Of a DNA stretch of 14,055 nucleotides, positions 1 through 14,055 are shown piece after piece. Every line of letters begins with the position of its first letter. Position 1 is the first letter of the stretch. The DNA is taken from IMG/VR virus record IMGVR_UViG_2778261354_000013, positions 1 to 14,055 of that record. The stretch is one strand, 5' to 3'. The stretch is from a virus. Its lineage: Duplodnaviria > Heunggongvirae > Uroviricota > Caudoviricetes. Below the pieces are notes generated by a model. It made no database searches. It was not told the DNA's origin and saw nothing but the letters and a program-made list of their open reading frames with translations. The translations under genes were made by a program, and so were the position numbers.

Positions 1-1734
1 ATGATTCAGGATGCATTTGTCCGCATAAGAGCAAGACAACTTTACTGGCAAGGGTACACGCCTGCGGAAATCTCGCAACTGATGGGGATCAGTCAGAACA
101 CGATTTACTCATGGAAAAAACGCGATGAGTGGGATGCCACGCCCCCGATCCAGCGTGTCACTCAGTCCATTGATGCGCGGCTGATCCAGCTCACCACCAA
201 AACGGAAAAAAGCGGCAGTGATTTCAAAGAAATTGACCTGCTGACGCGCCAGCTGAAAAAACTGAATGACAGCCAGGGGGAACAGGTTGTTTCCGGTAAA
301 AAGCCCCGCAAGCGCAAACTGAAAAATCACTTCACCGAAGAACAGATTGCCGCGCTTCGTGAAAAAATCCTGCCGTCACTGGCCTGGCATCAACGCGAAT
401 GGTACGAAAACCGCCACCACCGAAACCGCATGATCCTGAAGTCGCGTCAGATTGGGGCGACCTGGTATTTTGCGCGCGAGGCGCTACTGGATGCGCTGCG
501 TGATGACGTCTCCGCCGGGTATCAGCGCAACCAGATATTTTTGTCCGCCTCCCGTCGTCAGGCGTATCAGTTTAAACACTTTATTCAGCAGGCTGCTCAG
601 GAAGTGGATGTCGAGCTGAAAGGGGGCGATAAGATTGTGCTGTCCAACGGCGCAGAACTGCACTTCCTCGGTACGTCAGCTGCCACCGCGCAGTCCTATA
701 GCGGCCATCTGAAATTCGACGAATTTTTCTGGGTCAGTAACTTTGTGAATCTCAGGAAGGTTGCCGGGGCAATGGCGACGCTGGAAGGGCTTACGCGTAC
801 CTACTTTTCAACGCCGTCAGGTGAAACACATGAGGCGTATCAGTTCTGGACGGGGGACCGCTGGAACAGCGAACAGCCACGCTCAAAACGCAGTGAGTTT
901 GATGTTTCACATGCGCACCTGAAGGGGGGCGTGCTCTTTCCTGACGAAACATGGCGGCAGATTGTCACCATTGAGGATGCTGTCGCTAACGGATGGCGGT
1001 ACACCAATATTGGTGTTATTCGCGGCGAAAATACAGAAAGTGAATTTCGTAATCTGTACATGTGCGAATTTGTCCGTGATGGTGAGGCAGCCTTCAGCCT
1101 GAGTGCGCTCACCGGCTGCGGTGTTGACGGCTATGACGAATGGCCGGACTGGAAACCTTTTGCTGCCCGCCCTGTGGGGGTGAGGGAGGTCTGGCTTGGG
1201 TATGACGCCAACGGCAGCAGCGGGAAGGGGGACTGCGGGGCACTGTCGGTGTGCGTGCCGCCCCTTGTTGCCGGTGGGCGTTTTCGCACGGTGGAAACCG
1301 TCAGGGTTCAGGGCATGGAGTTTGAGCAACAAGCCGCCCTGATTGAAGAGTACACGAAGAAATATAACGTGAAACATATTGGTATTGATGTGACCGGCGG
1401 GAACGGGGAAGGGGTTTATCAGATAGTGAAAAAATTCTTCCCCCTGGCTGTTCCGTACAACTTCAATATCGCGTCCAAACGGGCGCTGGTCATGAAGATG
1501 CTTCAGGTGGTCCGTGCCGGACGCTGGGAGTATGACCGCAGCGAGCGCGACCTGGTACAGGCCTTTGCATCGGTGCGAAAAATACAGACGCCCGGCGGTT
1601 ATATCACCTATGACACGGACCGCTCACGCGGTGTCAGTCATGGTGATCTCGCCTGGGCAACCATGCTCGCTGTCATCAATGAGCCAATCGGCGCAGAGCG
1701 CGAGGATAATCGCGGCTTTGCAATGGAGTTCTGA
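1..1734 (+). CDS. Terminase large (ATPase) subunit, P2 gpP-like
   Basis: 577 aa ORF starting at base 1. Terminase-type deviant Walker A (KSRQIGATW); C-terminal acidic nuclease-like segments (LGYDANGSSG, HIGIDVTGGNGEG); followed 5 bp later by the portal gene as in the P2 P-Q operon. The true start may lie at or before the window edge. Confidence 0.8.
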   Translation: MIQDAFVRIRARQLYWQGYTPAEISQLMGISQNTIYSWKKRDEWDATPPIQRVTQSIDARLIQLTTKTEKSGSDFKEIDLLTRQLKKLNDSQGEQVVSGKKPRKRKLKNHFTEEQIAALREKILPSLAWHQREWYENRHHRNRMILKSRQIGATWYFAREALLDALRDDVSAGYQRNQIFLSASRRQAYQFKHFIQQAAQEVDVELKGGDKIVLSNGAELHFLGTSAATAQSYSGHLKFDEFFWVSNFVNLRKVAGAMATLEGLTRTYFSTPSGETHEAYQFWTGDRWNSEQPRSKRSEFDVSHAHLKGGVLFPDETWRQIVTIEDAVANGWRYTNIGVIRGENTESEFRNLYMCEFVRDGEAAFSLSALTGCGVDGYDEWPDWKPFAARPVGVREVWLGYDANGSSGKGDCGALSVCVPPLVAGGRFRTVETVRVQGMEFEQQAALIEEYTKKYNVKHIGIDVTGGNGEGVYQIVKKFFPLAVPYNFNIASKRALVMKMLQVVRAGRWEYDRSERDLVQAFASVRKIQTPGGYITYDTDRSRGVSHGDLAWATMLAVINEPIGAEREDNRGFAMEF

Positions 1735-1739
1735 AAACA

Positions 1740-2783
1740 ATGAGTAAACGTAAAAAATACACCGGAAAGCGCGGCACGGGCTCACTGGCTGATGCACTGA
1801 AATCAGCGCCGTCACTCAGTGCTTTCACGTTTGACGGTCCTTATGAAGCAAGCCGTCTTGATCTTCTTGATAACATGTCGTGCGCCGATAATGGCCGCTA
1901 CTATGACACCCCTGTGGACTGGAACGCCATAGCCCGCGCCTCCCGTCGTGCGTCCTGGCACCAGTCAGCGTTGTACTTCAAGCGCAATGCCCTTAATGGC
2001 TGTTTTATTCCTCATCCGCTCCTGTCACGCCAGGCATTTTCCGCGTTTGCGCTGGACTGGTTTGTGTTCGGTAATGCCTATCTTGAAGTCCGTCGTAACC
2101 GGCTTGGTGAACCCATTGCGCTTCGTCCGGCGCTGGCGAAATACACGCGGCGGGGCAGTGACCTTGATACGTACTGGTATCTCAGTGATGACGGCTCTGA
2201 ATACGCATTCCGGAAGGGGGCGGTGTGTCATGTGCTTAACCCCGATATCAACCAGGAAATCTACGGGATGCCGGAATATATCGGTGGCCTGCTTTCGGTG
2301 AATCTGTCGAACTCGGCGGATACGTTCCGCAAGCTCTACTATGACAACGGCTCACATGCCGGGTGCATTGTCTATGTTGGTGCCGCCCAGGCAAACGCTG
2401 AAAGCGTGGAGGCGGTAAAGAAAACGCTCACGGAATCCCGTGGCAAAGGTGCGTTCCGCAATATCCTTCTGCACGCGCCAGGTGGTGGCAAGGATGGCGT
2501 GCAAATCCTGCCGTTCCAGCAAATCACCGCGAAGGATGAATTCCTGAACATCAAGGGGAGTGCACGCGACGATATCCTTGCTGCTCACCGTGTACCGCCT
2601 CAGCTGATGGGGGCGATGCCTGACGGTAATGCCGCGTTCGGTGACGTTGAGAAAGCGGCGAGGGTGTTTTTCATCAACGAGCTGCAACCTGTCATGGAGG
2701 CCATGAAGCATGTCAATGAATGGCTTGGTGTTGAGGTGATGCGCTTTAATCCCTATGCGCTGCTTCAGGATGACGCCAGCTGA
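1740..2783 (+). CDS. Portal protein, P2 gpQ-like
   Basis: 347 aa ORF immediately downstream of the terminase gene on the same strand; size and position match P2 gpQ (about 344 aa). No single diagnostic motif was read; the call rests on synteny and length. Confidence 0.7.
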   Translation: MSKRKKYTGKRGTGSLADALKSAPSLSAFTFDGPYEASRLDLLDNMSCADNGRYYDTPVDWNAIARASRRASWHQSALYFKRNALNGCFIPHPLLSRQAFSAFALDWFVFGNAYLEVRRNRLGEPIALRPALAKYTRRGSDLDTYWYLSDDGSEYAFRKGAVCHVLNPDINQEIYGMPEYIGGLLSVNLSNSADTFRKLYYDNGSHAGCIVYVGAAQANAESVEAVKKTLTESRGKGAFRNILLHAPGGGKDGVQILPFQQITAKDEFLNIKGSARDDILAAHRVPPQLMGAMPDGNAAFGDVEKAARVFFINELQPVMEAMKHVNEWLGVEVMRFNPYALLQDDAS

Positions 2784-2810
2784 CGCGCTTCGCTTGTCGG
2801 CTGCTTCGCC

Positions 2811-2833
2811 GGGGCATAAAAAATTTATGCCCC
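2811..2833. other. Perfect 10-bp inverted repeat with 3-nt spacer (GGGGCATAAA-AAA-TTTATGCCCC) 28 bp after the portal stop
   Basis: Read directly from the sequence; no U-tract follows on either strand, so it is not a canonical intrinsic terminator. Possible 3' stabilising stem-loop or protein site. Confidence 0.4.
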
Positions 2834-3230
2834 GACTCTCCAGCTCCACCAACATAAAGCACATCTCAGCCCTTAAATTATTAATCATACTTAACATTAT
2901 GTTTTGCCGTGGTTTTTCCTCTACTTCATGCCATGTCTGCGGTGTGATGTCCCCGCGTTTAATCCCGACCCCGTAAAACTCAATCAGACGCCTTCTGACG
3001 GCCTGCTTCTCTGACCATGTTTTGATGTGGTTTTTCAAAACTGGCTTCACTGCGTGCGTATCACGCGCAATACGCCCCCATATAAAGCAACCTGCCTTCC
3101 ACCCCTCAATTCGGGCGCCCTTCCCTCGTCGCCTGCGCGCTGCAATTGCCTCGTTTTTTGTGCACCGTGCAAACCGGCCTCAGCCAGCGCCGTTACTGGG
3201 CTGAATGGGGATGAAACACATAAGAAAAAT

Positions 3231-3260
3231 TGTGCAATTTCGTGCACTTTTGTGCACTGA
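3231..3260. repeat. Three tandem 10-bp units (TGTGCAATTT / CGTGCACTTT / TGTGCACTGA) with helical phasing
   Basis: Direct reading; two further GTGCA(C/A) copies lie at 3160-3172. GTGCAC is itself palindromic. Confidence 0.5.
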
Positions 3261-3264
3261 AACA

Positions 3265-3287
3265 AACGCCCGGAACAGGGCGTTTTT
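3265..3287. terminator. Bidirectional rho-independent terminator between convergent late (P-Q) and early operons
   Basis: Stem AACGCCC / GGGCGTT with loop GGAACA, followed by TTTTT on + and by TGTTTC on -. It sits 2-5 nt beyond the stop of the last minus-strand gene (3289). Confidence 0.6.
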
Positions 3288-3288
3288 C

Positions 3289-3618
3289 TCATTTCTGCTC
3301 TCCCTTGTGTTGTGCGTTCTCCCTGATTATGTCATTGCATAAATCCACGCACTCATTGCAGATCCAAACAGATGGTCCGGCAATAATCTGTCTGACATCG
3401 TACTGGCTTTTGTTGCAGAAGCTGCAATAAAGCGTCTTCCCGACTGAAGTTGGTGTTTTGCTGGGTTCTCCACACACCAGTCGTTCGATGTCTCTTTCGC
3501 GCCGAAGAGCGATCTGGCTGCATACAGCTATTTTTTGCAGGTTGATGTTTTCTTCTTTCGCCAGTGCTTCAATTCGATCAATCAGTCGCTGTGCTTTTTC
3601 TCTGTCAATATATTGCAT
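3289..3618 (-). CDS. Standalone ClpX-type C4 zinc-finger (ZBD-like) protein, 109 aa
   Basis: C-terminal segment [39 protein letters not shown] closely matches the N-terminal zinc-binding domain of enterobacterial ClpX (recalled from memory: [37 protein letters not shown]). N-terminal ~55 aa are charged and helical. Start chosen at the ATG at 3618 (the track's 3627 is a GTG); the SD is weak. Confidence 0.75.
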
Positions 3619-3632
3619 TGTGCCCACTCTGA

Positions 3633-3980
3633 TTACTGGTTTGCGATGACTGGCAGCTCTTCGCCAGCGCCGTAGATAAACAGAATTCGCTTCATGACTT
3701 CGCTGCGCTTACAGGCTTCGATGACTGATTTTTCCTGTTGCCACTCAGCCCGTTTCGCCAGCTCCAGCCGTTCCTTTTCCGTTGGCTTCCGGTAATGCGT
3801 GATTTTGTCCGTGTACCCGTCCACAACCAGCAGCCCTTCGCGTACCATCTTTCCGGCGGCCTGATTGATTACAGTTCTTCTCACACCCAGTTTTTCGACC
3901 AGCTCCGGCGCGGAAAAACGCGGGTGTGTTTCCAGGTGGCGTAAAATGATTTCCTTTCCGGTCATTCTGGTGGGCTTCAT
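3633..3980 (-). CDS. Putative winged-helix DNA-binding protein, 115 aa
   Basis: Start reassigned to the ATG at 3980 ([20 protein letters not shown]...), preceded by GGAG SD; ATGA overlap with the upstream gene's stop. Central segment [34 protein letters not shown] has an HTH-wing pattern. Confidence 0.65.
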
Positions 3981-4147
3981 TGGGCGGCTCCTTCGTTGTT
4001 CCGGCGTTCCCGGAGTTCGGTCAGTGCTGCCAGTAAATTTTCCCACCACGTTTCTTCCACAACCGGATTGTGTCGTGAAAGCAGCTGCTGCGCTGACTCA
4101 ATCATTTTCTTCAGGTCTTTGTCGCTGATCTTCCTGATGTCGTTCAT
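3977..4147 (-). CDS. Hypothetical small protein, 56 aa
   Basis: Start at ATG 4147 (MNDIRKISDK...) with AAGGAG SD 6 nt upstream; its stop overlaps the start of the next gene (ATGA). Confidence 0.5.
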   Translation of the reverse strand: MNDIRKISDKDLKKMIESAQQLLSRHNPVVEETWWENLLAALTELRERRNNEGAAQ

Positions 4148-4182
4148 GGTGTGCTCCTTTGGTTTGCTGTTTCTGGTCATGT

Positions 4183-4599
4183 TCATGGTCTTTGTTGCCT
4201 GCGTGATTGCCTGTTGGCGGCCGAATGCACATAGCGGGCAATTGCCGCTTTTCGGTTAACGGCGGCCAGCGTTCTTGCCAGCTCTTCGTTGAGTTTTCTG
4301 GTCTGTTTTTCCCGGTACTCCGCCATGATTTTTCCGACGGGGGTCAGTGGTTCAGGTTCTGATATGGCGCGACGAGGACGTACGGCAACGATGAATGCGC
4401 TTCTGTCGGCGTTGATTCTTGCAGTCAGGATGTCGGTCATGACGGTATCTGTGCTGCGATCTGGGTTTGCAATCGTGATTTCCAGTTCGTCGCCTGGCTG
4501 TGGTCGAACACTGACGCCGCTCAGCGTCAGTGCCGGAATGCGTCCGCTCATGATGGTGCTGAAATCATGGCGCTGGAGTACGCAATGGAATCGTGTCAT
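4183..4599 (-). CDS. Hypothetical protein, 138 aa, translationally coupled to gene A
   Basis: ATG at 4599 overlaps the A stop (ATGA); GGAGGT SD 7 nt upstream. No recognisable motif; the C-terminus is a basic helical tail. Confidence 0.6.
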   Translation of the reverse strand: MTRFHCVLQRHDFSTIMSGRIPALTLSGVSVRPQPGDELEITIANPDRSTDTVMTDILTARINADRSAFIVAVRPRRAISEPEPLTPVGKIMAEYREKQTRKLNEELARTLAAVNRKAAIARYVHSAANRQSRRQQRP

Positions 4600-7109
4600 G
4601 GGTTCACCTCCGGTTGATCCACTGCCACCAGGCTTCGTGATTTCTCATCCCAGTGCACAATCCGCCCGTCAGGCAGGCGAACGCGTGCACCTCTGTGTAC
4701 GGAAAGCGCCGCGCTACTGTGCAATTCCTCGCCCGTCGTGCTCAGTGCCGACTTGATCACGGTGGTGGTGACGTCATCCAGCGGCAATGCTGTACGCACA
4801 TGTATGACGTCATCGGGCGTAGTGGTGCCGCCGGTTTTCACGGTTTTTGTGTCAGATGGCACATTTTTCAGCTGCCTGGTGAGTTGTTTTCGCTCTGTGG
4901 GGGTCAGTGACCTTAACCACTCGCCCAAATCACCTTCCGGGATGGTCAGCTTCTGCTCTTTCCTCCCTTCAGGTGGTGGGGTTTTGTCTGTTTCGTTGTT
5001 TGTTTTTTCGTCTACCCCACAGTTATTGCCACGAGTCCAAGGTGCGGCGAAGCCGCCCCCAACGTCAAAACCCTCGTCCGTGCTGTTGTCGTTTTTCGCT
5101 TCTTTTCTGACCAGTTTCCACTCGTCCTGATGGGTACAGATGGTGTAGCGCTCTCCGAGCGACGGGGCACAAATTCCGTAGATGCGCTGCGGGAGCTCGC
5201 CGTAGTCGTTGGCCTCACCGGCGGTTTCGTATGCAGTTCGTAGCAAATACGAGTTACGAGGAACAAGCACACCGCCCTGACGGATGATGTAGGAGGCAAA
5301 ACATCCCACGTCTGCGGCGGCCAGAATGGCGTCAATGTCTTCATGGTCGAGGCGCTTCGGTGATGCCGGGTTGCGCTCCATCTGTCCGGCAAGGCGGCGG
5401 AGTTCACGCCATACCTGGCGGGGCGGAATACCGAAGAACTGGAACTGCCGGATGCGGTGGAGGCTTGCCCAGGCAATGGCGTTTTCCACGGTTTCCGCCA
5501 TGGTTTTTCCTGATTCCTCATCGGCGTAAGGTTTGCCGGTTTTCGGGTCATTGCCGTGGAAGGCGCTGGCGTCCAGGTTCTTACCGATATAGGTTGCTAT
5601 GTAGCTTGCTGGCGAGCCTTTTGCCGGGTCGATCTCCTCGCATTTAAAGCGTGGTGAAATGTCGTCACCCAGTTCAGCGCGGTCTGACTTGATTGCAGCG
5701 TTACGCATAATTTCAATGATGCGGTCTTTGTTCTCTGGCGCGGTAAATACCAGCATGTGCCAGTGTGGCGTGCCGTCATGGTGCGGCTCAACGGTGCGCA
5801 CCCCGTACCAGCTCATACCGGCATCCTTCAGGGCATAACGCACGGCTGCAAAGAAGTCGTACACCAGATAATCGCTGGCATCGCGTACGGTGGCACCGTT
5901 GTATTTCGGGTTCAGGCTGCCGTCCTCGTTCACAGTGTGAAAGCGGGAAGGGCAGGTCACTGTCACGAAGAACGCGGAGTCACCGCGCGATTCGGCGATC
6001 TGTTCCATCCCTCTGACGCAGGCCATCATCTCGTTGCGGCGATTGCGTGGATTACCCAGCCCTGACCAGTACACGTCCTCCAGACTCAGGCGTTCACCGT
6101 CTTCGTTTTCAATATCCCAGCTTTTGAGAAAATCACGGGTGCGCTGGCGTTTCTCGCGAAACCCCTGAAGTGATTCATGGCTGATGTAGGGGGATGTCTT
6201 GCGCGATACTCTTCCGGCGGCACGCAGTAATTCCTCCCGCCAGAGATCAGCGAGGTGGCGCAGCTGGCTGTTCCACCAGGTGGCGCAGGTGATGCGCATT
6301 ACCGCACCCGGTACCCGCTCAGGGTCTGGTGCCGTGCGGCGGTCACGTCTGATCTCTAGTGACGGCCAGTATGGTGGGTTCACGCCCAGTTTTAACGCCA
6401 TGCGCGCCAGCTGCTGGTAAGTCAGCAACCAGGTAAACAGGTTATCGTCGCCTTTTCCGGTCCGCTCAATGACTTCATCGCATATGCGTTCCAGTTCGGT
6501 GGAAAATGCCGCCGCCGTCAGTGTGGCAAGTCGCTGAATCTGATCACGGTTGAGTTCCGGCAGCATGAGTAATTCATCAAGACGATGACGTGCCGCTGTG
6601 GCTTTGAATGCTGTCGTGGCGAAGCGTTCATTCACCTGTTTGATGCGGTTGAGGCGTCTGCTTAGCCCACGGCGAACGAAGTTATCTGCTACGTGTGTAT
6701 TGTTGTTTTTCACGCCTTCATTGCGGGCGCTCTGTTGTTTTCTGTTTAAACGCGCCAGATCACGAATGAGCGCGTTGCCAAGAAATGAGGGCAGGGCGCG
6801 AAGTTCTGCCATGGCTTCCGATACCACCGTGGGCGGATTCTCGCGTTTGTGCCGCGCCAGTTTTTCCAGTCTGATCCGACGCTCTTCGTCGTGGTGAAGA
6901 TGCGAATTAATTCGCTTGCCTTCGTCTGTGTTTGTCAGGAAGTCGACGGTTTCTTCATCCAGTCTGGCATCAATGCGAATGTCCTCGTTGATGTAGCTCT
7001 GAATGGCCTGGCGTAATGCGGTTGGCTGTGCTCTGCCGAACGTTTCAGGATCGATAACCGGTAGCGGGGCGTTCCACGGGTACGCCAGTTGTGCGTTATG
7101 GTCGCTCAT
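4596..7109 (-). CDS. Rolling-circle replication initiation endonuclease, P2 gpA family
   Basis: 837 aa. HUH-type metal-binding motif TPHWHMLVF (about 5751-5765) and paired catalytic tyrosines in SYIATYIGK (about 5589-5603). GGGGAG SD 8 nt before the ATG at 7109. Position matches P2 gene A. Confidence 0.85.
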   Translation of the reverse strand: MSDHNAQLAYPWNAPLPVIDPETFGRAQPTALRQAIQSYINEDIRIDARLDEETVDFLTNTDEGKRINSHLHHDEERRIRLEKLARHKRENPPTVVSEAMAELRALPSFLGNALIRDLARLNRKQQSARNEGVKNNNTHVADNFVRRGLSRRLNRIKQVNERFATTAFKATAARHRLDELLMLPELNRDQIQRLATLTAAAFSTELERICDEVIERTGKGDDNLFTWLLTYQQLARMALKLGVNPPYWPSLEIRRDRRTAPDPERVPGAVMRITCATWWNSQLRHLADLWREELLRAAGRVSRKTSPYISHESLQGFREKRQRTRDFLKSWDIENEDGERLSLEDVYWSGLGNPRNRRNEMMACVRGMEQIAESRGDSAFFVTVTCPSRFHTVNEDGSLNPKYNGATVRDASDYLVYDFFAAVRYALKDAGMSWYGVRTVEPHHDGTPHWHMLVFTAPENKDRIIEIMRNAAIKSDRAELGDDISPRFKCEEIDPAKGSPASYIATYIGKNLDASAFHGNDPKTGKPYADEESGKTMAETVENAIAWASLHRIRQFQFFGIPPRQVWRELRRLAGQMERNPASPKRLDHEDIDAILAAADVGCFASYIIRQGGVLVPRNSYLLRTAYETAGEANDYGELPQRIYGICAPSLGERYTICTHQDEWKLVRKEAKNDNSTDEGFDVGGGFAAPWTRGNNCGVDEKTNNETDKTPPPEGRKEQKLTIPEGDLGEWLRSLTPTERKQLTRQLKNVPSDTKTVKTGGTTTPDDVIHVRTALPLDDVTTTVIKSALSTTGEELHSSAALSVHRGARVRLPDGRIVHWDEKSRSLVAVDQPEVNP

Positions 7110-7522
7110 GCGTCACACTCCCCGACAGTTGCCGTCTGAAACGCCGCGCGGTACAGCACGAGAAGGCGCTGGTATTCGCCGATAAAACCTTCTGCGGTGT
7201 ATATACCTTTCACGGCCACGCTGTGGTTTGTCATTTCCAGAACAAGCGCCATCTCTGACGACGACCAGCTGATGGCGGTACTGTCGGTGCCGTTGATGTG
7301 AAATAAACCAAAGCTATCACCATCACCTTTCACGTCCACGCGGTAACGACCGTCAACGGTGAAGGAGAAATCCCCGTATGTGGTGATGCTGCGGGCAGCC
7401 TGTTTACAGGCACGGCGGTAATGGTCGTGCCAGTTGTTCAGACGTGAAGCCAGTCTGGGATCAACCGCCCACATCCAGTTAAAAAAGTCCTGAATATCTG
7501 AAAGTCCCTTAACGCTCTTCAT
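7106..7522 (-). CDS. Hypothetical protein, 138 aa, immediately upstream of A
   Basis: GGAGGT SD 4 nt before ATG 7522; stop overlaps the A start (ATGA). No motif recognised. Confidence 0.6.
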   Translation of the reverse strand: MKSVKGLSDIQDFFNWMWAVDPRLASRLNNWHDHYRRACKQAARSITTYGDFSFTVDGRYRVDVKGDGDSFGLFHINGTDSTAISWSSSEMALVLEMTNHSVAVKGIYTAEGFIGEYQRLLVLYRAAFQTATVGECDA

Positions 7523-7545
7523 GAGAACCTCCGGTAACAGACGTG

Positions 7546-7582
7546 CGGAAGCCTCCCGCGCACGGGTGCGGGATAGCTTCCG
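7546..7582 (-). other. GC-rich nested stem-loop in the intercistronic gap (7523-7590)
   Basis: Outer stem CGGAAGC / GCTTCCG and inner stem CCCGC / GCGGG, read directly. No U-tract, so not a canonical terminator. Confidence 0.3.
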
Positions 7583-7590
7583 GATATGGT

Positions 7591-7815
7591 TTATCGGCGC
7601 TTGTTGTTGATGAGGCTTTGCAGTTCTGCCAGGTCTTCGGCCAGATAGCTGAAGACGGCAGCGCAGTAACGGTTTGACAGCGCGTGCGTGCGCTCATGCA
7701 GCATGTTGATGTGCATGATTTGCGCGACGCGTGTTGCGCGGAAAAGTCTGCGGTTGATTTCGCTGCGGATGTGAATACGCTCAGCGCGGGCGCGCTTTTG
7801 CTTGCGGTTTGCCAT
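7591..7815 (-). CDS. Hypothetical basic protein, 74 aa
   Basis: ATG 7815 preceded by AGAGG SD at 7 nt; N-terminus is Arg/Lys-rich (RKQKRARAERIHIR). First gene after a ~380 bp non-coding spacer. Confidence 0.55.
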   Translation of the reverse strand: MANRKQKRARAERIHIRSEINRRLFRATRVAQIMHINMLHERTHALSNRYCAAVFSYLAEDLAELQSLINNKRR

Positions 7816-8112
7816 GGTGTGGCCTCTTCGTTTGTGAATTTTGAAAACTCACCATCCAGAGCTGCGAAACTGTGGGTGGCGAGACGTACGAGGTTCGCAG
7901 TACCGGCAAACGAAGAAACCGGCCCGACCGAAGTCGGCCCCGTACGCCCCGCCATAATTCTGACGCGAAAAAGACGTGGCGATACAGTACGCACAAAAAA
8001 ACCGCTGGCGCGGCTGTGCGCTTCGTTTGTCAGCAGGCTGCGAAACCCGACACCCGTTTTATGAGATGCAGCGGAAATGTAACCTGACTCAACGAGCACT
8101 GGCAAGCGGTTT

Positions 8113-8140
8113 TTGTGTTGCGTGCTGAAGTATGTATAAT
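8113..8140 (+). promoter_or_regulatory. Candidate sigma70 promoter for the plus-strand membrane-protein gene
   Basis: TATAAT at 8135-8140 with a weak TTGTGT -35 16 bp upstream; strong GGAGG SD at 8191-8195. By-eye prediction only. Confidence 0.3.
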
Positions 8141-8201
8141 CGCGGCGCAAAAATGGAATGCGCCGAAGGATAGCGGCGTTTATTAACAATGGAGGTTGTT
8201 T

Positions 8202-8669
8202 ATGCCTGTTGCTATGGAGCAAGCAGACAAGAAGATTTTTTTCCATCTGTGGTACAGCTACTGGCTGGAAGAGATGGTTTTCATACTCAGCAATAAAGCC
8301 GCTGCCGTGTTGCGCGCCGGGGCACTGATTGCTGCGGTATTGTCCTTTCTTCTCGTAGGTTTTCCCGTCCTGATGAGCCTTTGCGGGCTGGCGTTTTTTG
8401 TTTTTTCCTGGTTTTGCAGCAAGTGTGAATTCGTCGCCGAACTGGCGTGCTGGCAGAAACAGAGCTACCTTCGTCTGATTACGCAAAGGGATTCCATGAG
8501 CACTGAACGCCTCATTGAGCGCATTCTGTATCTGGAAGAAACGAACAGCGCATTCATGAAGGCGTTTGTCAGGCCTGCAAAAAACAAAGCGAGCGCATCT
8601 GTTGGTCTGTCTGCCAGCGAGCATTTGCGTTACTCCGAAAGGTTAATCTGCTGGTTGTGCGGCTTCTGA
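8202..8669 (+). CDS. Predicted inner-membrane protein with two TM helices and a C-terminal Cys-pair domain (CSKC...CWLC), 155 aa
   Basis: ATG 8202 with GGAGG SD at 6 nt spacing (the track's 8196 start is TTG). Hydrophobic segments AAAVLRAGALIAAVLSFLLVGF and VLMSLCGLAFFVFSWF. The only plus-strand gene inside the minus-strand early operon. Confidence 0.55.
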   Translation: MPVAMEQADKKIFFHLWYSYWLEEMVFILSNKAAAVLRAGALIAAVLSFLLVGFPVLMSLCGLAFFVFSWFCSKCEFVAELACWQKQSYLRLITQRDSMSTERLIERILYLEETNSAFMKAFVRPAKNKASASVGLSASEHLRYSERLICWLCGF

Positions 8670-8996
8670 CCGGCGAAGCAGCTGCGCGACGGTTTCGCCG
8701 CCTGCCCGGGCAGACGGGTATGACACTGGCATATTCAGCTTGAGTGCCATTGCGTACTCCGCCCATGCGCCAGCGGACTCTTCCCATCCATCCAGTAAGT
8801 AAATGGCATCGGCACACATGAGCATCGGAATACAAATGCTCATGTACTGCTGTTGGCTCATGAATACCGATGCGCCACCCACAAACGGCTCAACCAGGCA
8901 GTCAGCTTCTGGCAGATGCGCCTTCAGTGTGTTCATGATGCGGCTTTTGCCGCCCACCCATACCAGCGGTGTACCGGATAACCGTTCTTTGCTCAT
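8643..8996 (-). pseudogene. Dam-family N6-adenine methyltransferase, N-terminal remnant (117 aa ORF, truncated)
   Basis: [35 protein letters not shown] matches the Dam N-terminal SAM-binding region (E. coli Dam from memory: [35 protein letters not shown]). The ORF ends after 117 aa with no DPPY catalytic motif, and none was found in any minus frame downstream. AAAGAGG SD precedes ATG 8996. Confidence 0.6.
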
Positions 8997-9205
8997 AACG
9001 CGGCCTCTTTGTTATAGGTTTCGTGCGTTAATAAATCCCATGATGCCCCGTTGTTTTTGCTCAGCAGTCGCCAGCGAAAACCGATTCTTATTACCAGGTA
9101 GTTGTGGGGTTTTATGCGTGAAAAATTCCGCACGCCGTCGCGGAATAAATGCAGCGATGCGCGGGCTTTTCTTTCCACGTTCAGGGGGGGGGCAGCAACA
9201 CACAT
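8993..9205 (-). CDS. Possible small upstream ORF (70 aa) containing a C9 tract, coupled to the Dam-like start
   Basis: Stop overlaps the Dam-like ATG (ATGA), but there is no SD before ATG 9205. A second frame (9012-9221) also spans the homopolymer. Coding status is uncertain. Confidence 0.25.
   Translation of the reverse strand: MCVAAPPLNVERKARASLHLFRDGVRNFSRIKPHNYLVIRIGFRWRLLSKNNGASWDLLTHETYNKEAAL
9184..9192. repeat. G9 homopolymer tract (C9 on the minus strand)
   Basis: Read directly: nine consecutive G at 9184-9192, between the exonuclease stop and the Dam-like gene. Confidence 0.9.
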
Positions 9206-9231
9206 TCAGGATGGCGACCATAGCTTCACAC

Positions 9232-9813
9232 TCATATGCTCAGGAATGGCGTTGGGAAGCGCTGCCAGATTTCTGACACGACCCTTGCCTGGTAAATGGC
9301 ATCGCCCAGTGCAGTGTGAGCAATGGTCTCTTTGCCTGATCGGCCTGGTATTCCCCAGCCGGAGGACTTAGCCATGTCGATAAGCGAGCGCATACAGCGC
9401 TCGTTCCAGTAGCGCCACGGAATACTTTTTTCTCCGGTTGTTCGCTTTATGGCTGATCTCAGGATTGGGAAAACAAAGGATGCGCCCTTGCACCATACGA
9501 TTAGTTGATTGCCCATGGTTTCGTCTTGCATGTTGCGCGAAATGAACGCCAGAAATTCGGTTACTGCCGCAAGTTCTGTTCCCTCTGCGTTGAGCAGGCA
9601 GGATCTGGCCTCCGCGGATTCCCCGGCCCACCATAAGGCGGTTGATGCATTGACGGTTCCGCCGTTGCGCTCTGAATCCACCGGGTCGATGTATTTCTCA
9701 AACTGCTTGCCCAGCTTTCCGGTGAACGGGTCGAAAAACACCGCGCCGATCGCGAATATGACTGCATCCGGTCCGGTACCCAGTGTTTCGGTGTCGATCA
9801 TGAGATGGTTCAC
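9232..9813 (-). CDS. DnaQ-like (DEDDh) 3'-5' exonuclease, 193 aa
   Basis: Exo I motif MIDTETLG and Exo III motif HTALGDAIYQA. Start proposed at GTG 9813 (AAGGAG SD 8 nt upstream; GTGA overlap with the upstream stop); ATG 9801 is an alternative. Confidence 0.75.
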   Translation of the reverse strand: MNHLMIDTETLGTGPDAVIFAIGAVFFDPFTGKLGKQFEKYIDPVDSERNGGTVNASTALWWAGESAEARSCLLNAEGTELAAVTEFLAFISRNMQDETMGNQLIVWCKGASFVFPILRSAIKRTTGEKSIPWRYWNERCMRSLIDMAKSSGWGIPGRSGKETIAHTALGDAIYQARVVSEIWQRFPTPFLSI

Positions 9814-10034
9814 TGTGTGCACTCCTTCTGTTCGGCGTTGTTCGTGAGCGTTGCAATCAGTCGTTCAATGGATGAACATGTTTCCAGCGGGGAGGTGTGC
9901 TTCTCTCTCGCCGTGTTAACCAGGTCACTCAGTAATTCGCAGATATGTGCACGCTCGGCTTTTCTTGCGGCCATGCTGATGTGTGCATGATGGTTAACTG
10001 GTCTGGCGGTTGTTGGTGATTCGACTATTCTCAT
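9810..10034 (-). CDS. Hypothetical protein, 74 aa
   Basis: ATG 10034 with AGGAG SD at 7 nt. Shares short colinear patches with the 7591-7815 protein (AERxHI ... LxNN). Confidence 0.55.
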   Translation of the reverse strand: MRIVESPTTARPVNHHAHISMAARKAERAHICELLSDLVNTAREKHTSPLETCSSIERLIATLTNNAEQKECTQ

Positions 10035-10134
10035 TTGTTGACTCCTGAAAAAAGACAAAGGGAAGCCGAAGGCATGAATGCCTTAATTAATTGTTCGTGT
10101 GTTTTCTGGTGTTATTCCGCGCCTGCTTTCAGCT

Positions 10135-10239
10135 TCAGATTATCCCCAGATTCTTCAGCGCTAACCATATAAGCGCGCACACCTGAAATACCAACCATGC
10201 AGTGGCGATATTCAGTATTATTATTTTCACGTGCTTCAT
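10135..10239 (-). CDS. Possible small hydrophobic peptide, 34 aa (MKHVKIIILNIATAWLVFQVCALIWLALKNLGII)
   Basis: Translated by hand from the minus strand; not in the ORF track (below its length cutoff). ATG 10239 lies 12 nt after the upstream peptide's stop with a weak AGAG SD. One predicted TM segment. Confidence 0.25.
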   Translation of the reverse strand: MKHVKIIILNIATAWLVFQVCALIWLALKNLGII

Positions 10240-10251
10240 AATCTTTTCTCT

Positions 10252-10377
10252 TTATTTACGGCGTTTGTCGCCAGTAAAAAATAATTCGACATCCTTCAGT
10301 GTGTGGATAATTCGCATAACGCCGATTGCCATAAGCACGGATATAATCAGAATTACCCATGAAAGGAATATGCTCAT
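10252..10377 (-). CDS. Small single-pass membrane peptide, 41 aa (MSIFLSWVILIISVLMAIGVMRIIHTLKDVELFFTGDKRRK)
   Basis: Translated by hand; AGGAG SD 7 nt before ATG 10377, whose start overlaps the upstream gene's stop (ATGA). Hydrophobic N-terminal helix and charged C-terminal tail. Confidence 0.45.
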   Translation of the reverse strand: MSIFLSWVILIISVLMAIGVMRIIHTLKDVELFFTGDKRRK

Positions 10378-10616
10378 GCTGCCACTCCTGTGAAGTAAGG
10401 CTCAACAATTTCACCTTCAAACAGTTCTGTCATAATCGACTTTAATTCTTCCAGTGCTTCACGGTCATCGCTGCCCAGCGCGCAGTTATACAGTCCCATA
10501 ATTGCGCCGCGCAGTGAGTTACGAAGGCTTTCATCCTTAGTTACGCCCCGGTTTGCAAGTTCGAAGTGGTAACGCTGCAACGCGTTATTAATAAGTATTT
10601 TGTAGGCTTCGATCAT
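10374..10616 (-). CDS. Hypothetical protein, 80 aa
   Basis: ATG 10616 with AAGGA SD at 7 nt. No motif recognised. Confidence 0.55.
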   Translation of the reverse strand: MIEAYKILINNALQRYHFELANRGVTKDESLRNSLRGAIMGLYNCALGSDDREALEELKSIMTELFEGEIVEPYFTGVAA

Positions 10617-10634
10617 GACTGAATCCTTTATTTA

Positions 10635-10979
10635 TCAGTGCTTACTTCCCGGATACTGAAAACACAGGCCGTTGATTAATCTGTCTGCCGTTCTTAAGGC
10701 ATCAAAAAATGTGAAGTCCTGTCCGAAGTAATCATCTCCGCGAGTCAGAGTAAAATTAAATCGGCCAGTAACAGGGCTGCGAAAACTTTTGTGAATAACG
10801 ATGTCGGTATCACCAATCGTCCAGGTGTGCTTGCCAGTTTGTTTTACCGGGTGACCGTCTGGTGTGGCGTGTATTTCGGTGGTTGCGGTCGCACTATTTT
10901 TACGGAAGTGCTGGCGTGCACCGTGGCGTTCGGTGCCAGTGAAGAATTTTAGTCGTGAGGTACTAGCGTTTTTCTTCAT
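10635..10979 (-). CDS. Hypothetical protein, 114 aa
   Basis: ORF with a weak SD, in operon context directly downstream of the Cox-like gene. No motif recognised. Confidence 0.5.
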   Translation of the reverse strand: MKKNASTSRLKFFTGTERHGARQHFRKNSATATTEIHATPDGHPVKQTGKHTWTIGDTDIVIHKSFRSPVTGRFNFTLTRGDDYFGQDFTFFDALRTADRLINGLCFQYPGSKH

Positions 10980-10999
10980 AGTTATGCTCGCTTCATTGT

Positions 11000-11203
11000 T
11001 TAGCTGTTGGCTATTGCGTCTTTTAACATAGCTATAAGGTTTACTTCTGGTTTTTCCATTTTGACACGTTTGGGGCGGATAATAATTCGACCGTCAGCCA
11101 ACATCTTTTTGCATGTGTTAAGAGGAATGCCTGTTATCTCGGCGTATTTCTTCAGAGATACGTAAGGGGCATTAACGTTGATGTTTATTGTTATACCTTG
11201 CAT
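11000..11203 (-). CDS. Cox/excisionase-like HTH regulator, 67 aa
   Basis: Start reassigned to ATG 11203 (MQGITININVNAPYVSLKKYAEITGIPLNTCKKMLADGRI...) with AGGAGG SD at 8 nt. The PY-HTH-(R/K)M(I/L)xDG(K/R) pattern resembles P2 Cox (recalled from memory). Confidence 0.6.
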   Translation of the reverse strand: MQGITININVNAPYVSLKKYAEITGIPLNTCKKMLADGRIIIRPKRVKMEKPEVNLIAMLKDAIANS

Positions 11204-11207
11204 CCCG

Positions 11208-11426
11208 TTAACCTCCTGAGCATGAAGATTGGCTTTGCTCTTTCTGTGTAACCTCAAGGCCGCGAAGGAAGATCATGCGTGCCATGTTAGAGGATGTGCG
11301 TTGTTCTTTAGCCGCCATTTCATCAATGACGGCTCGCTCTTCTGCTGACAATCGAAGTGCTAGTCGTTGGCCTGTTGCGGTGTTACGCGGAATACGTGAT
11401 CTGGTGCTGTGATTAACTTGTTTCAT
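11208..11426 (-). CDS. Ribbon-helix-helix (RHH) DNA-binding protein, 72 aa; first gene of the early operon
   Basis: RLALRLSAEERAVIDEMAAKEQRTSSNMARMIF has a beta-strand then helix pattern typical of RHH/MobC-like domains. No SD before ATG 11426; sits directly at the divergent switch region. Confidence 0.55.
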   Translation of the reverse strand: MKQVNHSTRSRIPRNTATGQRLALRLSAEERAVIDEMAAKEQRTSSNMARMIFLRGLEVTQKEQSQSSCSGG

Positions 11427-11501
11427 AGTGGTATATTGTGATCATCTAATTGCTCGTTAAGGTATTTTGGTATCAAAAAAGATACCTGTCAAGGTTTTTG
11501 T
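11427..11501. promoter_or_regulatory. Divergent lysis-lysogeny switch region with repeated GGTAT half-sites and a consensus -35 on the minus strand
   Basis: Perfect TTGACA on the minus strand (11487-11492); GGTAT motifs at 11430-11434, 11461-11465, 11469-11473 and inverted at 11482-11486. By-eye prediction. Confidence 0.45.
11469..11486. promoter_or_regulatory. Candidate operator: 18-bp dyad GGTATC-AAAAAA-GATACC
   Basis: Perfect inverted repeat read directly; it abuts the minus-strand TTGACA and lies 16 bp upstream of the repressor ATG. Confidence 0.5.
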
Positions 11502-11906
11502 ATGAAAAATGATATCGGTCAGCGGCTGCGTGAGGAAAGGGAACGGCTGGGTCTTAGCCAAGTCGCTATGAGTGATATTGGTGGGGTTAAAAAGTTAACC
11601 CAACTTAGATATGAGAAAGGGGATAGCTTTCCTGATGCGGCGTACTTATCAGCATTGTCGCGTTTTGGCCTTGATGTTCAGTATGTCGTGTTGGGAATTC
11701 ATTCACCTGAAACTTATAACGATGATGAACAGGAGTTGATCACACGTTTTCGGAGTGCCTCACTAGATGTGAAAAACGCGGTGATTGGTGCTTTGAAAGG
11801 TGCAGTCACTGAAAAGGAGGACCAGTTATCAGGGGGAGAGTTAAATATCTCTGGCGGGAATAACCGCATCGCAGGCCGTGACTATAACGAAACAAAAGGT
11901 AAGTGA
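11502..11906 (+). CDS. XRE-family HTH repressor (putative immunity repressor, C/CI-equivalent), 134 aa
   Basis: N-terminal HTH (IGQRLREERERLGLSQVAMSDIGGVKKLTQLRYEKG); divergent from the Cox-like/RHH genes and upstream of int on the same strand. C-terminal tail carries the NNRIAGRDY motif. Confidence 0.7.
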   Translation: MKNDIGQRLREERERLGLSQVAMSDIGGVKKLTQLRYEKGDSFPDAAYLSALSRFGLDVQYVVLGIHSPETYNDDEQELITRFRSASLDVKNAVIGALKGAVTEKEDQLSGGELNISGGNNRIAGRDYNETKGK

Positions 11907-11921
11907 TAGCAAGGAGGTGGC

Positions 11922-12566
11922 ATGACGGTCAACTCAAACGGTTCAAATAATCGCATTGCTGGGCGAGATTACCAAGAAAAGAATATTCAGATAGAGCGAT
12001 ATGATGGCTCTCATACCGTCAATATCGCAATTCCTTCGAGCAATGACAGTGATCAACGTCCTTTGCTTAAGATTCAGCGGAAGGCGTTAAATAGTTTGGT
12101 CGCTACTATTGTAGATGCCAGCAATACCGAAGCGTTTATTATTTGGCAAAAATTGCATGCAGAGATTGGTGTAGACGGTATTGATGATATAACAATGAAT
12201 CAATATAAGACCGCAGAGAGCTTTCTGTGTGCGATGCTTGAACGATGTAAAGATCATGATGCGCGTAAGGCACTTGTAAGTATTTTACTTCGTAATAGTG
12301 AAGTTGGAGTGCTTCGTCAAAAACTTATCCGCTATTGCCATATCAATTTCGGAACGGGTCGCTTAAACGATCTTACTCGTTCTCAGCTTCAGATGGCTCT
12401 TTCCTGGTTAGACCAACAATCCGTGGAAGGAGAAAAGAAATTAACTGCTAACAATTCTGTCGGTAGTCAATTACAGATGAATTTTCAGCAAATAATTAAA
12501 AAACACCCAAAAGAAACAGGAATGTGTTTCGTTGTTGGTGTTTTATTAGGCAGTGTTCTTTTCTGA
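11922..12566 (+). CDS. Hypothetical tail-anchored protein, 214 aa (C-terminal TM helix MCFVVGVLLGSVLF)
   Basis: Strong AAGGAGGT SD; N-terminus repeats the NNRIAGRDY motif of the repressor tail; AT-rich codon composition suggests acquired cargo. Confidence 0.6.
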   Translation: MTVNSNGSNNRIAGRDYQEKNIQIERYDGSHTVNIAIPSSNDSDQRPLLKIQRKALNSLVATIVDASNTEAFIIWQKLHAEIGVDGIDDITMNQYKTAESFLCAMLERCKDHDARKALVSILLRNSEVGVLRQKLIRYCHINFGTGRLNDLTRSQLQMALSWLDQQSVEGEKKLTANNSVGSQLQMNFQQIIKKHPKETGMCFVVGVLLGSVLF

Positions 12567-12761
12567 TAGATAGTTGTTGGAGAAAGATATTATGGCAAAA
12601 GCTTGCTTTACCGACTTTAGAATAAATGAAAAAGATAAATTAAGCGAGCTGACAAAGGTGGGAGGGGGCTAGTGATGTAAGAAATGGTGTGAGTTACTTG
12701 TCATGGTCTTAAAGAAAAGTAAGTCTTTGTTCATGAGGAAGTCCAAAGAGGTAAATGAATT

Positions 12762-13019
12762 ATGGTAACTAATCCGCAAATTCCATTAACTGGTTTATAT
12801 GTATCTAAAGTTAATCCATCTAATCGTATAGTTGTTACTAATGTTCATATTGTCCAGGGCGATGACGATGAGCCCGGAGATCTTCCTTTCTATTTGGTTA
12901 CTTTTGTAAATGAGGGGGATGAGGATGATATGTCGGCTCCTTCTTGGGAGCTTGATCCTGATGAATGGGAGCAGTTAGTTGATGAAAAGCTCTTTATGCG
13001 GGTTGGGCAACCATCTTAA
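12762..13019 (+). CDS. Highly acidic small protein, 85 aa
   Basis: AAGAGG SD 10 nt upstream of ATG 12762; D/E-rich clusters (GDDDEPGD, EGDEDD, ELDPDEWEQLVDE). Lies between the cargo gene and int. Confidence 0.5.
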   Translation: MVTNPQIPLTGLYVSKVNPSNRIVVTNVHIVQGDDDEPGDLPFYLVTFVNEGDEDDMSAPSWELDPDEWEQLVDEKLFMRVGQPS

Positions 13020-13053
13020 TAACGAAAATTTTCCTTGGTGTGCACTTTTTAAT

Positions 13054-14055
13054 ATGTCTGTTCGTAAACTATCTACTGGTAAATGGCTCTGTGAATGCTA
13101 TCCCTACGGAGCAGCAGGAAAACGCATTCGTAAGCAGTTTGCGACAAAAGGTGAGGCGCTCTCTTATGAGCGCCGTTTAATGAACAGTAATTTAGGGGGA
13201 GAGTTTCAGGATGGTTCTGGTCCCCGTCTTTCCGAGTTGGTTGCTCGCTGGTTTGATATGTACGGTAAAACGTTGTCTTCCGGTGAAGAGCGCAAGGCTA
13301 AACTTGAGGCGGTTTGCTCTAGGTTGGGTGATCCGTTTGCTTCTCAATTTGATAAAAATATGTTTGCCATCTACAGGGAACGGCGGTTATCAGGTGAATG
13401 GAATCCAAAGGGGAAGAAAAAACTTAGTGAAGCAACCGTTAATCGCGAGCAGTCATATTTGCATGCTGTTTTTGCTGAACTGAAGCGCCTTGGGGAGTGG
13501 TCTGGTGAAAATCCATTGACAGGTATTCGCAAGTTTCGTGAGGAAGAAAAGGAGCTGGCGTTTCTGTATGCAGATGAGATTGAACGCCTTCTGATTGCAT
13601 GTGATGAGTCACGGAATAAAAATTTGGGTGTTGTCGTCCGTATTGGGCTTGCGACTGGTGCCAGGTGGAGTGAAGCAGAGGGATTAAAGCAATCTCAAAT
13701 ACTGCCTGGACGAATCACATTTGTTAAAACCAAAGGAAAGAAGAACCGCACTGTACCTATTTCACCTCAATTGCAGGCCATGCTTCCTAAAAAACGCGGG
13801 GCGCTTTTTTCACCATGTTATGAGGCTTTTGACGCCGCTATTAAGAGAGCAAAGATCGAACTTCCTGACGGGCAATTAACTCATGTGCTACGTCATACGT
13901 TTGCCAGCCATTTTATTATGCGGGGAGGAAATATTCTTGTGTTGCAAAAAATACTGGGGCATAGCGATATAAAAATGACTATGCGTTATGCACACTTTGC
14001 GCCGGATCATTTAGAGGCTGCTGTTGAACTGAATCCCTTTGACAATAGAGAGTAA
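13054..14055 (+). CDS. int: Tyrosine integrase, P2 Int-like
   Basis: Start reassigned to ATG 13054 (MSVRKLSTGKW...). C-terminal catalytic signature HVLRHTFASH ... GHSDIKMTMRYAHF; the N-terminus resembles P2 Int (recalled from memory). The stop is the last base of the window. Confidence 0.9.
   Translation: MSVRKLSTGKWLCECYPYGAAGKRIRKQFATKGEALSYERRLMNSNLGGEFQDGSGPRLSELVARWFDMYGKTLSSGEERKAKLEAVCSRLGDPFASQFDKNMFAIYRERRLSGEWNPKGKKKLSEATVNREQSYLHAVFAELKRLGEWSGENPLTGIRKFREEEKELAFLYADEIERLLIACDESRNKNLGVVVRIGLATGARWSEAEGLKQSQILPGRITFVKTKGKKNRTVPISPQLQAMLPKKRGALFSPCYEAFDAAIKRAKIELPDGQLTHVLRHTFASHFIMRGGNILVLQKILGHSDIKMTMRYAHFAPDHLEAAVELNPFDNRE

Follow-up and report, generated by a model that had tools for sequence, protein, structure and literature searches.

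We identified a likely two-gene immunity module in a 14,055-nucleotide stretch of Caudoviricetes DNA (positions 1 to 14,055 of IMG/VR record IMGVR_UViG_2778261354_000013; hereafter the window), which represents one end of a P2-like prophage. The module consists of the immunity repressor gene and the open reading frame (ORF) immediately downstream of it, ORF214, which encodes a protein of the Flk_N family with a single predicted C-terminal membrane anchor. We give a probability of about 60% to the reading that these two genes form a conserved unit, in which the membrane-tethered protein meets the repressor by means of a peptide present in both, and that ORF85, located between ORF214 and the integrase gene (int), is a dispensable accessory gene. 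The observations described below point to ORF214 as a relative of the flagellar regulator Flk in an undescribed part of the lysogeny switch.

In an alignment of 43 distinct repressors, the N-terminal XRE-type helix-turn-helix (HTH) domain is followed by a conserved helix (DE.EL..FR.A.L..K), then by a linker rich in Ser and Gly, and finally by the tail motif at the C-terminus. The tail, NISGGNNRIAGRDYNE, recurs as the N-terminus of ORF214, NSNGSNNRIAGRDYQE; the repressor ends in ...ELNISGGNNRIAGRDYNETKGK and ORF214 starts with MTVNSNGSNNRIAGRDYQEK. When aligned with each other the two sequences score 66 (z = 10 against shuffles). Ten residues are identical between the two copies in the window, and seven of these ten are specified by different synonymous codons, which argues that the identity of the motif is held at the protein level and rules out recent gene conversion as its source. 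A regular expression for the motif core has exactly two matches in 90 of 99 loci, always in the repressor tail and at the N-terminus of the Flk_N protein, and no match elsewhere in 1.57 million six-frame residues. A readthrough fusion of repressor and ORF214 was rejected as well, because a TGA TAG double stop separates the two frames and ORF214 is preceded by a strong ribosome-binding site of its own (AAGGAGG, 6 nucleotides before the ATG). An additional repeat of the motif inside the N-terminal part of ORF214 was considered as a general feature and dropped, since it is present in only 14 of 193 distinct N-termini.

The association of the two genes extends well beyond the window. About 180 related loci were gathered from E. 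coli genomes, genomes of other Enterobacterales, and viral contigs, of which about 150 have a P2-like backbone, 22 are Mu-like and 11 are unclassified. A Flk_N gene was found in every locus examined, just downstream of a member of one HTH repressor family. In all P2-like loci the repressor is followed after 9–18 bp by the Flk_N gene, a variable stretch of 320–1900 bp, and int. The hosts of these prophages belong to at least nine genera (Escherichia, Klebsiella, Enterobacter, Kosakonia, Erwinia, Mixta, Rosenbergiella, Izhakiella, and Symbiopectobacterium). The pair is also present in Mu-like transposable phages, which encode a transposase, a MuB-like protein, Mu gp27, and a lysis cassette and have no integrase; here the repressor and Flk_N genes may overlap by 4 bp. 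The pair therefore travels together between unrelated phage backbones, as expected of a module. At 11 loci the ORF directly upstream of the Flk_N gene is not a repressor. In six of them, by a strict pattern, a cassette has been inserted and the motif-tailed repressor lies one gene further up, and a seventh has a degenerate motif. A further insertion slot, this one separating the repressor from the Flk_N gene, was observed at loci L009, L118, L132, L156, L143, and L178. In Erwinia, for example, its occupant is a secreted protein of the YebY/DUF2511 type, and elsewhere it contains proteins of 114–154 amino acids.

The tail motif is retained by repressors with different HTH regions and hence different immunities. 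Relative to an L002-type prophage, homology with the window is lost over positions 11479–11864, which cover the HTH part, and resumes at 11865, where the tail starts. A breakpoint that keeps the tail while the HTH region is swapped indicates that the tail is genetically tied to the Flk_N gene. Mosaic breakpoints at these loci coincide with domain boundaries, the immunity swap being confined to the HTH part of the repressor and ending at the tail motif.

The N-terminal peptides of short phage-type Flk_N proteins occur in at least three flavours, and the repressor tails encoded upstream carry the matching flavour. Flavour v1 is present in both P2-like and Mu-like backbones. Flavour v2 is represented by L100 (repressor tail QQFNGPVGTVTTGDVVN, Flk_N N-terminus QQFHGAVEQVAAGDIKN) and, in a weaker form, by L102 (VGQYIEGSVNQAG and VGQVAEGDINNFG, respectively), and flavour v3 by L103 (SQTFNAPISGGEFAARDIVNH and TQEFNNQIHDGQFAGRDIVNN). 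A matrix of tail versus N-terminus alignment scores is block-diagonal, with values of 32–67 for v1 against v1, 20–47 for v2 against v2 (46 and 37 for own pairs), and 60 for v3 against v3, compared with 12–33 across flavours. Own pairs have z values of 4.4–12.7. In addition, the short contig L104 (2-944) encodes a Flk_N protein with a different N-terminal extension (QDERLARLAELLKDE), which resembles an internal segment (DSDRLARIVDLLESL) of the upstream protein, which is not a repressor. Judging from this resemblance, these peptides may be another shared-peptide flavour.

The first-pass annotation, made from the letters of the window, assigned no motif to either ORF214 or ORF85. Both can now be placed in families. 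ORF214 matches phrog_5825 (E = 3e-90) and the NCBIfam Flk model PRK10715 (E = 7.3e-16, amino acids 38–168), and Pfam PF27202 (Flk_N) is present in the precomputed annotation of all its database homologues. An older Pfam release, which predates PF27202 and the ORF85 family PF26332, contains no match for either protein. Similarity to Flk of E. coli K-12 is detected by BLASTP (29% identity over 123 residues, E = 5e-11). By its significant profile match ORF214 is a member of the Flk_N family; orthology with Flk was rejected, since ORF214 scores 58.4 bits against the PRK10715 equivalog cutoff of 353 and has one Flk_N unit rather than two. A profile search of 1.84 billion representative proteins recovered only 144 clusters, composed of short phage-type proteins (185–225 amino acids) and long chromosomal Flk proteins, and two Flk_N stretches were found in the proteins of 320–490 amino acids compared with one in ORF214. 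Profile searches of PDB sequences with the ORF214 and ORF85 families gave nothing below E = 0.28, and PADLOC contains no family that matches either protein at E ≤ 1.

The flk gene of E. coli K-12 (L099:5951-6946) looks like a tandem duplication of the unit that is single in phage proteins. Because of this appearance, and because the short form is found in both P2-like and Mu-like phages, chromosomal Flk may be a domesticated prophage gene. Among isolated phage genomes, tblastn with ORF214 identified only phage 520873 and one marginal match in a Ralstonia phage. Escherichia phage 520873 (NC_049344, L004) is the only sequenced isolate that carries the module. Its Flk_N gene is unannotated and is recovered by tblastn in three pieces, and its int is annotated as two parts, as a result of either sequencing errors or decay.

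The sole strongly hydrophobic stretch of ORF214 comprises amino acids 200–214 (Kyte-Doolittle 2.41 over 15 residues), and amino acids 199–214 form the only segment with a value above 2. AlphaFold2 (AF2) places a terminal helix at amino acids 196–213, preceded by a disordered N-terminus (1–40), a helical domain, and a variable linker. The predicted local distance difference test (pLDDT) score is about 90 at amino acids 45–170 and below 50 at 1–27. Hydropathy and the AF2 helix thus agree with the initial description of a 214-residue protein with a single C-terminal anchor. With one C-terminal helix and no other transmembrane segment or N-terminal signal, ORF214 is predicted to be a tail-anchored inner-membrane protein with a short membrane segment (15–16 amino acids). 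A C-terminal hydrophobic stretch is present in 231 of 243 family members. Residues G206 and G210 of the anchor are invariant; the GxxxG pattern occurs in 211 of the 243 phage-type members, and all 12 long Flk sequences of the chromosomal type that were inspected lack it. Its conservation suggests specific helix–helix contacts and possibly oligomerisation.

Comparison of ORF214 with its relatives gives ratios of nonsynonymous to synonymous substitution rates (dN/dS) of 0.23–0.28, which correspond to purifying selection. The first-pass annotation had proposed that ORF214 is inserted cargo. The gene is instead a conserved core component of the lineage, which is what that annotation itself had named as counting against its proposal: it is present in all of the roughly 180 loci, is under purifying selection, and extends into Mu-like phages. 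It also lacks the patchy, replaceable presence that is characteristic of a moron.

These observations can be accommodated by a model in which the module comprises an HTH repressor with a C-terminal tail peptide and a second protein made of the same peptide, a Flk_N helical domain, a linker, and a GxxxG tail anchor. The homologue Flk has been established experimentally as a tail-anchored inner-membrane protein facing the cytoplasm (PMC6794478, PMC13344023), and ORF214 would have the same location and orientation. Its disordered N-terminal peptide would mimic the repressor tail, and the two proteins would be in direct contact, either through pairing of the two peptides or through a single pocket that fits both and belongs to the Flk_N domain or to the repressor. 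A fraction of the repressor would thereby be tethered, sequestered, or buffered at the inner membrane, which would tune the upkeep or loss of lysogeny. Direct contact is the most economical reading, given that a change of flavour in one protein is matched by the same change in the other. A host partner, even a conserved one, would be insufficient by itself, since these are the only two genes common to the P2-like and Mu-like contexts and their flavours change together. Given the membrane anchor of ORF214, the outcome would be tethering or buffering of the repressor, and the protein would be a component of the switch rather than a passenger. We have fair confidence that repressor and ORF214 are functionally coupled. 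We infer that they interact physically, that this would either stabilise or antagonise the repressor, and that some signal may be sensed in the process.

Several points weigh against this model. The evidence for flavours v2 and v3 comes from few loci (L100, L102, and L103), and the match at L102 is weak (z = 4.4). Adjacent genes are co-inherited, which inflates the apparent covariation. In structure comparisons the Flk_N fold resembles generic helical bundles only. Finally, AF2 left the N-terminal peptide of ORF214 undocked, with pLDDT below 50, so that an intramolecular pocket has no support from this model.

The position next to the repressor is a classic one for exclusion genes, and ORF214, alone or with ORF85, could confer superinfection exclusion or abortive infection on lysogens, either by preventing the entry of DNA or by killing cells that become infected, similar to lambda RexB, P22 SieA, or K139 Glo. 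RexB is reported to be polytopic. The lambda cI-rexA-rexB operon resembles the locus described here in that genes downstream of the immunity repressor are co-transcribed with it and one of them encodes a membrane partner. However, the Rex proteins have no sequence or fold relationship to the ORF214 pair, and CI and the Rex proteins have no terminal peptide in common. From the same position, rexAB is reported both to exclude phages and to modulate the switch, biasing it between lysis and lysogeny (bioRxiv 10.1101/2021.04.19.439022; PMC11077077). ORF214 is likewise co-transcribed with the repressor and membrane-anchored, and the neighbouring slot contains defence-like cassettes (PDC-S48-like TerB-BRCT, BRCT-WYL, and, in Mu-like loci, TIR proteins). 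We nevertheless regard exclusion as unlikely, as ORF214 is invariant over the lineage rather than patchy and matches no PADLOC model, and exclusion alone leaves unexplained why its N-terminus copies the repressor tail and covaries with it.

The shared peptide could also be a degron or decoy, recognised by a host protease such as FtsH, ClpXP, or Lon, in which case ORF214 would either protect the repressor by competition or deliver it for degradation. Lambda CIII, which protects CII, and its relation to FtsH provide an analogy. Both copies of the motif are at a disordered terminus behind a flexible linker, and terminal degrons are known on phage repressors, both in integration-dependent immunity and in the Mu repressor (PMC3694055, PMC8138137). 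However, a conserved host protease would not force a paired change of flavour, and v1 is found in P2-like and Mu-like backbones alike; we consider this explanation quite unlikely. It is very unlikely that ORF214 serves in flagellar conversion, acting like Flk on the export gate (FlhA/FlhB) and altering the export of FlgM or flagellin, with a possible reduction in motility, immune visibility, and infection by flagellotropic phages. Flk (also Fluke or RflH) holds flagellar type III export in the mode for early substrates and inhibits secretion of late substrates (PMC13344023), and ORF214 shares with it a homologous Flk_N helical domain (amino acids 38–168) and the predicted topology of one C-terminal inner-membrane anchor with the protein facing the cytoplasm. 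In contrast, Flk has about 331 amino acids, two Flk_N units, and a gene beside pdxB, whereas ORF214 has 214 amino acids, one unit, and a position in a prophage repressor operon. Identity to Flk is only 29%, the 58-bit match is far from the 353-bit equivalog cutoff, and the repressor-like N-terminal peptide and GxxxG anchor of ORF214 are absent from Flk. The location of the motif exactly at the junction of adjacent or overlapping genes is also compatible with a relic, left when a junction duplication split a single membrane-anchored repressor gene, whose similarity has no present function. This is highly improbable, as the two copies are conserved as protein sequences while their codons differ, and this conservation spans lineages in which Flk_N domains have only about 30% identity. 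The copies have also diverged into matching flavours where unconstrained relics would have drifted apart.

Amyloid-signalling pairs (BASS, the E. coli Bab/Agp abortive-infection system) were discovered by a genomic signature in which one motif, set off by flexible linkers, ends one protein and begins the product of the adjacent gene. The peptide described here has this arrangement, which invites a templating reading. By this analogy the shared peptide would be an amyloid-like or beta-solenoid motif. Once clustered in the membrane, the Flk_N protein would seed a beta assembly of its N-terminal peptides, and the repressor, by virtue of its matching tail, would be drawn into this assembly and inactivated. 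Prion-like recruitment, in place of cleavage or a soluble antirepressor, would then flip or lock the switch, and Flk would be a domesticated descendant of the phage gene. The peptides resemble those of HET-S/NWD2, bacterial BASS, and Bab/Agp in their length of about 20 residues, their G/N-rich composition, their position next to a flexible linker at the end of one protein and the start of the next, and the match within each pair. However, those pairs combine a NOD-like receptor (NLR) with a pore-forming effector, whereas an HTH repressor and a tail-anchored Flk_N protein are combined here, and the motif here is rich in charged residues. The motif position and the within-pair match are therefore those of a BASS-like system, while NLR receptor and cell-death effector domains are absent. 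We consider this extended scenario doubtful.

The features of the window are listed in Table 1. As first annotated, two extra genes lie on the same strand between the repressor and int, and the two ORFs are located where they had been placed. Both are conserved coding genes. No terminator-like site was found between any of the four rightward genes from the repressor to int, and an Rfam scan of positions 10000–14055 yielded no match.

Table 1. Location of genes, protein segments, and other features in the window
Feature	Amino acids	Position	Strand	Basis or remark
Terminase and portal genes		1-2783	+	
gpA-type replication gene		4596-7109	-	
Early operon, reaching up to Cox-like and Arc-like genes		to 11000-11426	-	
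Start of divergent early operon: Arc-like gene; Cox-like gene		11208-11426; 11000-11203/11257	-	phrog_3431; phrog_575
Sigma-70-like promoter match		11492-11464	-	Promoter scan; consensus match only
Immunity repressor	134 in total	11502-11906	+	Pfam HTH_31/HTH_3, phrog_8
Repressor tail motif LNISGGNNRIAGRDYNE	114-130	11841-11891	+	Core NRIAGRDY at 11862-11885
ORF214 (ATG start), predicted tail-anchored Flk_N-domain protein, conserved partner of the repressor	214 in total	11922-12566	+	phrog_5825, NCBIfam Flk, PF27202
ORF214 N-terminal motif VNSNGSNNRIAGRDYQE	3-19	11928-11978	+	Core at 11949-11972; predicted disordered
Flk_N helical domain of ORF214	46-165	12057-12416	+	
Predicted C-terminal membrane anchor of ORF214, TGMCFVVGVLLGSVLF, with GxxxG	199-214	12516-12563	+	Hydropathy, AF2
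Exchangeable block: ORF214 linker and anchor, AT-rich spacer, ORF85		12422-13049	+	
AT-rich spacer of 195 bp between ORF214 and ORF85			+	
ORF85, acidic small beta-barrel protein (AF2 model), accessory cassette	85 in total	12762-13019	+	DUF8087 (PF26332)
P2-type tyrosine integrase (ATG start), last gene of the operon		13054-14055	+	Pfam Int_N, Phage_integrase; phrog_1

The two genes had also been described as AT-richer than the replication module, and this was taken as a sign of horizontal acquisition. The first part is correct: GC content is 0.395 in ORF214 and 0.403 in ORF85, compared with 0.55–0.56 in the replication and packaging genes. However, it is also low in the repressor (0.457), int (0.451), and cox (0.392). 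The drop starts near position 10000, and the dip over ORF214 and ORF85 is only slightly deeper than the regional one. Since the AT-richness is common to repressor, cox, and int, low GC marks the whole control and integration region and not two inserted genes, and it loses its value as an indication of horizontal acquisition.

ORF85 is strongly acidic, as had been noted, with an isoelectric point of 4.05 and 17 Asp and Glu residues against four Lys and Arg, for a net charge of -13. It matches phrog_17127, and PF26332 (DUF8087) is found in the precomputed annotation of all 23 homologues and is also the RefSeq product name. Homologues are 45–60% identical and occur in at least seven genera, among them Yersinia, Serratia, Klebsiella, Raoultella, Edwardsiella, and Izhakiella. 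The label 'DUF1292' carried by some of them in UniRef was discarded, as Pfam scans of all 23 members did not reproduce it. AF2 models ORF85 as a small beta-barrel plus a helix with acidic loops (pLDDT 76). In its size, charge, and clustered acidic patches on a small beta-barrel ORF85 resembles the acidic DNA-mimic and inhibitor proteins Ocr, ArdA, Ugi, and CarS, the last of which is an acidic SH3-like operator mimic. However, it has no sequence or significant structural match to these four proteins, and structure and sequence searches found neither a relative among known DNA mimics nor a match that gives a specific activity. As a guess from this model, the acidity and the small beta-barrel would fit a protein- or DNA-mimic inhibitor.

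The region between the Flk_N gene and int is a variable slot, in which at least eight unrelated cassettes, ORF85 being one, are found in related prophages. In most E. coli prophages it is occupied by a DUF2511/YebY-like secreted protein. Other occupants are BRCT-WYL proteins, TerB-BRCT proteins that resemble the PADLOC candidate PDC-S48 (E = 3e-9), a two-gene pair of a zinc-ribbon protein and a membrane coiled-coil protein, and several proteins that are secreted or located in the membrane. At Mu-like loci the module is succeeded by a lipoprotein and a TIR protein. Homology of the window to the common E. coli variant L003, which has the DUF2511/YebY-like gene at this place, ends at 12421 and resumes at 13050. 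The exchangeable block starts inside ORF214, at the end of the Flk_N domain, and takes the linker and membrane anchor along.

ORF85 is reduced to 41 codons in L002-type prophages. In Serratia a homologue is found after int in a prophage that has no Flk_N gene, and in Yersinia a homologue adjoins an int remnant. Its patchy and replaceable presence is that of a moron, and we take ORF85, from its distribution in these sequences, to be a dispensable accessory gene that would be expressed with the lysogeny operon. Located in a variable slot, truncated in relatives, and found on either side of int, it is the part of the region that fits the original idea of accessory or exclusion cargo in the lysogeny operon; ORF214, conserved and linked to the repressor, does not. 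In the Serratia prophage L180 (4451-6503), where a DUF8087 gene lies downstream of int, we also observed an AAA_15/AAA_21 ATPase together with a 206-amino-acid protein at the prophage end, a defence-like pair.

Slots of this type have precedents. P2-like accessory and defence hotspots and the glo gene of phage K139 have in common with the present slot a variable, lysogen-expressed gene position by the control region and int. Nesper and colleagues are said to have found, in 1999, glo and orf2 of K139 between cI and int. To our knowledge, none of the P2 hotspots treated by Rousset and colleagues in 2022 corresponds to the present slot, which separates the Flk_N gene from int. Glo has been described as a periplasmic 'immunity gene' (PMC4870250).

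Three further observations were made elsewhere in the window. The stretch that separates gpA from the packaging genes, a region in which P2 carries tin and old, encodes at 3633-4049 (- strand) a 138-amino-acid protein with a match to phrog_142, the PHROG 'Ren-like exclusion protein' (E = 5.6e-28). The short ORF at 8643-8996 (- strand) matches a DNA methyltransferase PHROG at amino acids 9–46 and a nucleoside 2-deoxyribosyltransferase PHROG at amino acids 47–98, and from this arrangement looks like a chimeric or remnant gene. The Arc-like protein matches phrog_3431 with E = 4.7e-26. In its place RefSeq has a 45-amino-acid ORF on the + strand (L001 2876-3013), which is probably a strand mis-call in the public annotation.

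The region described here is matched at the DNA level in 524 of 5426 complete E. coli genomes, about a tenth, and homologues are also present in many Klebsiella, Enterobacter, and Serratia prophages, in which the gene beside the repressor has so far been without an assigned role. Our analysis brings to light a repressor-partner module that is widespread and uncharacterised and whose copied peptide covaries between the two proteins, together with a compact accessory-gene hotspot; the slot before int is easy to recognise and could be mined for further accessory and defence genes. If ORF214 controls the availability of the repressor by means of a copied peptide, this would represent a new way in which a phage switch is wired to the membrane of the cell. 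Such a mechanism would also offer a means of controlling induction in P2-like and Mu-like prophages, which are very common, and a lead to the function of the Flk_N domain, which is poorly understood.

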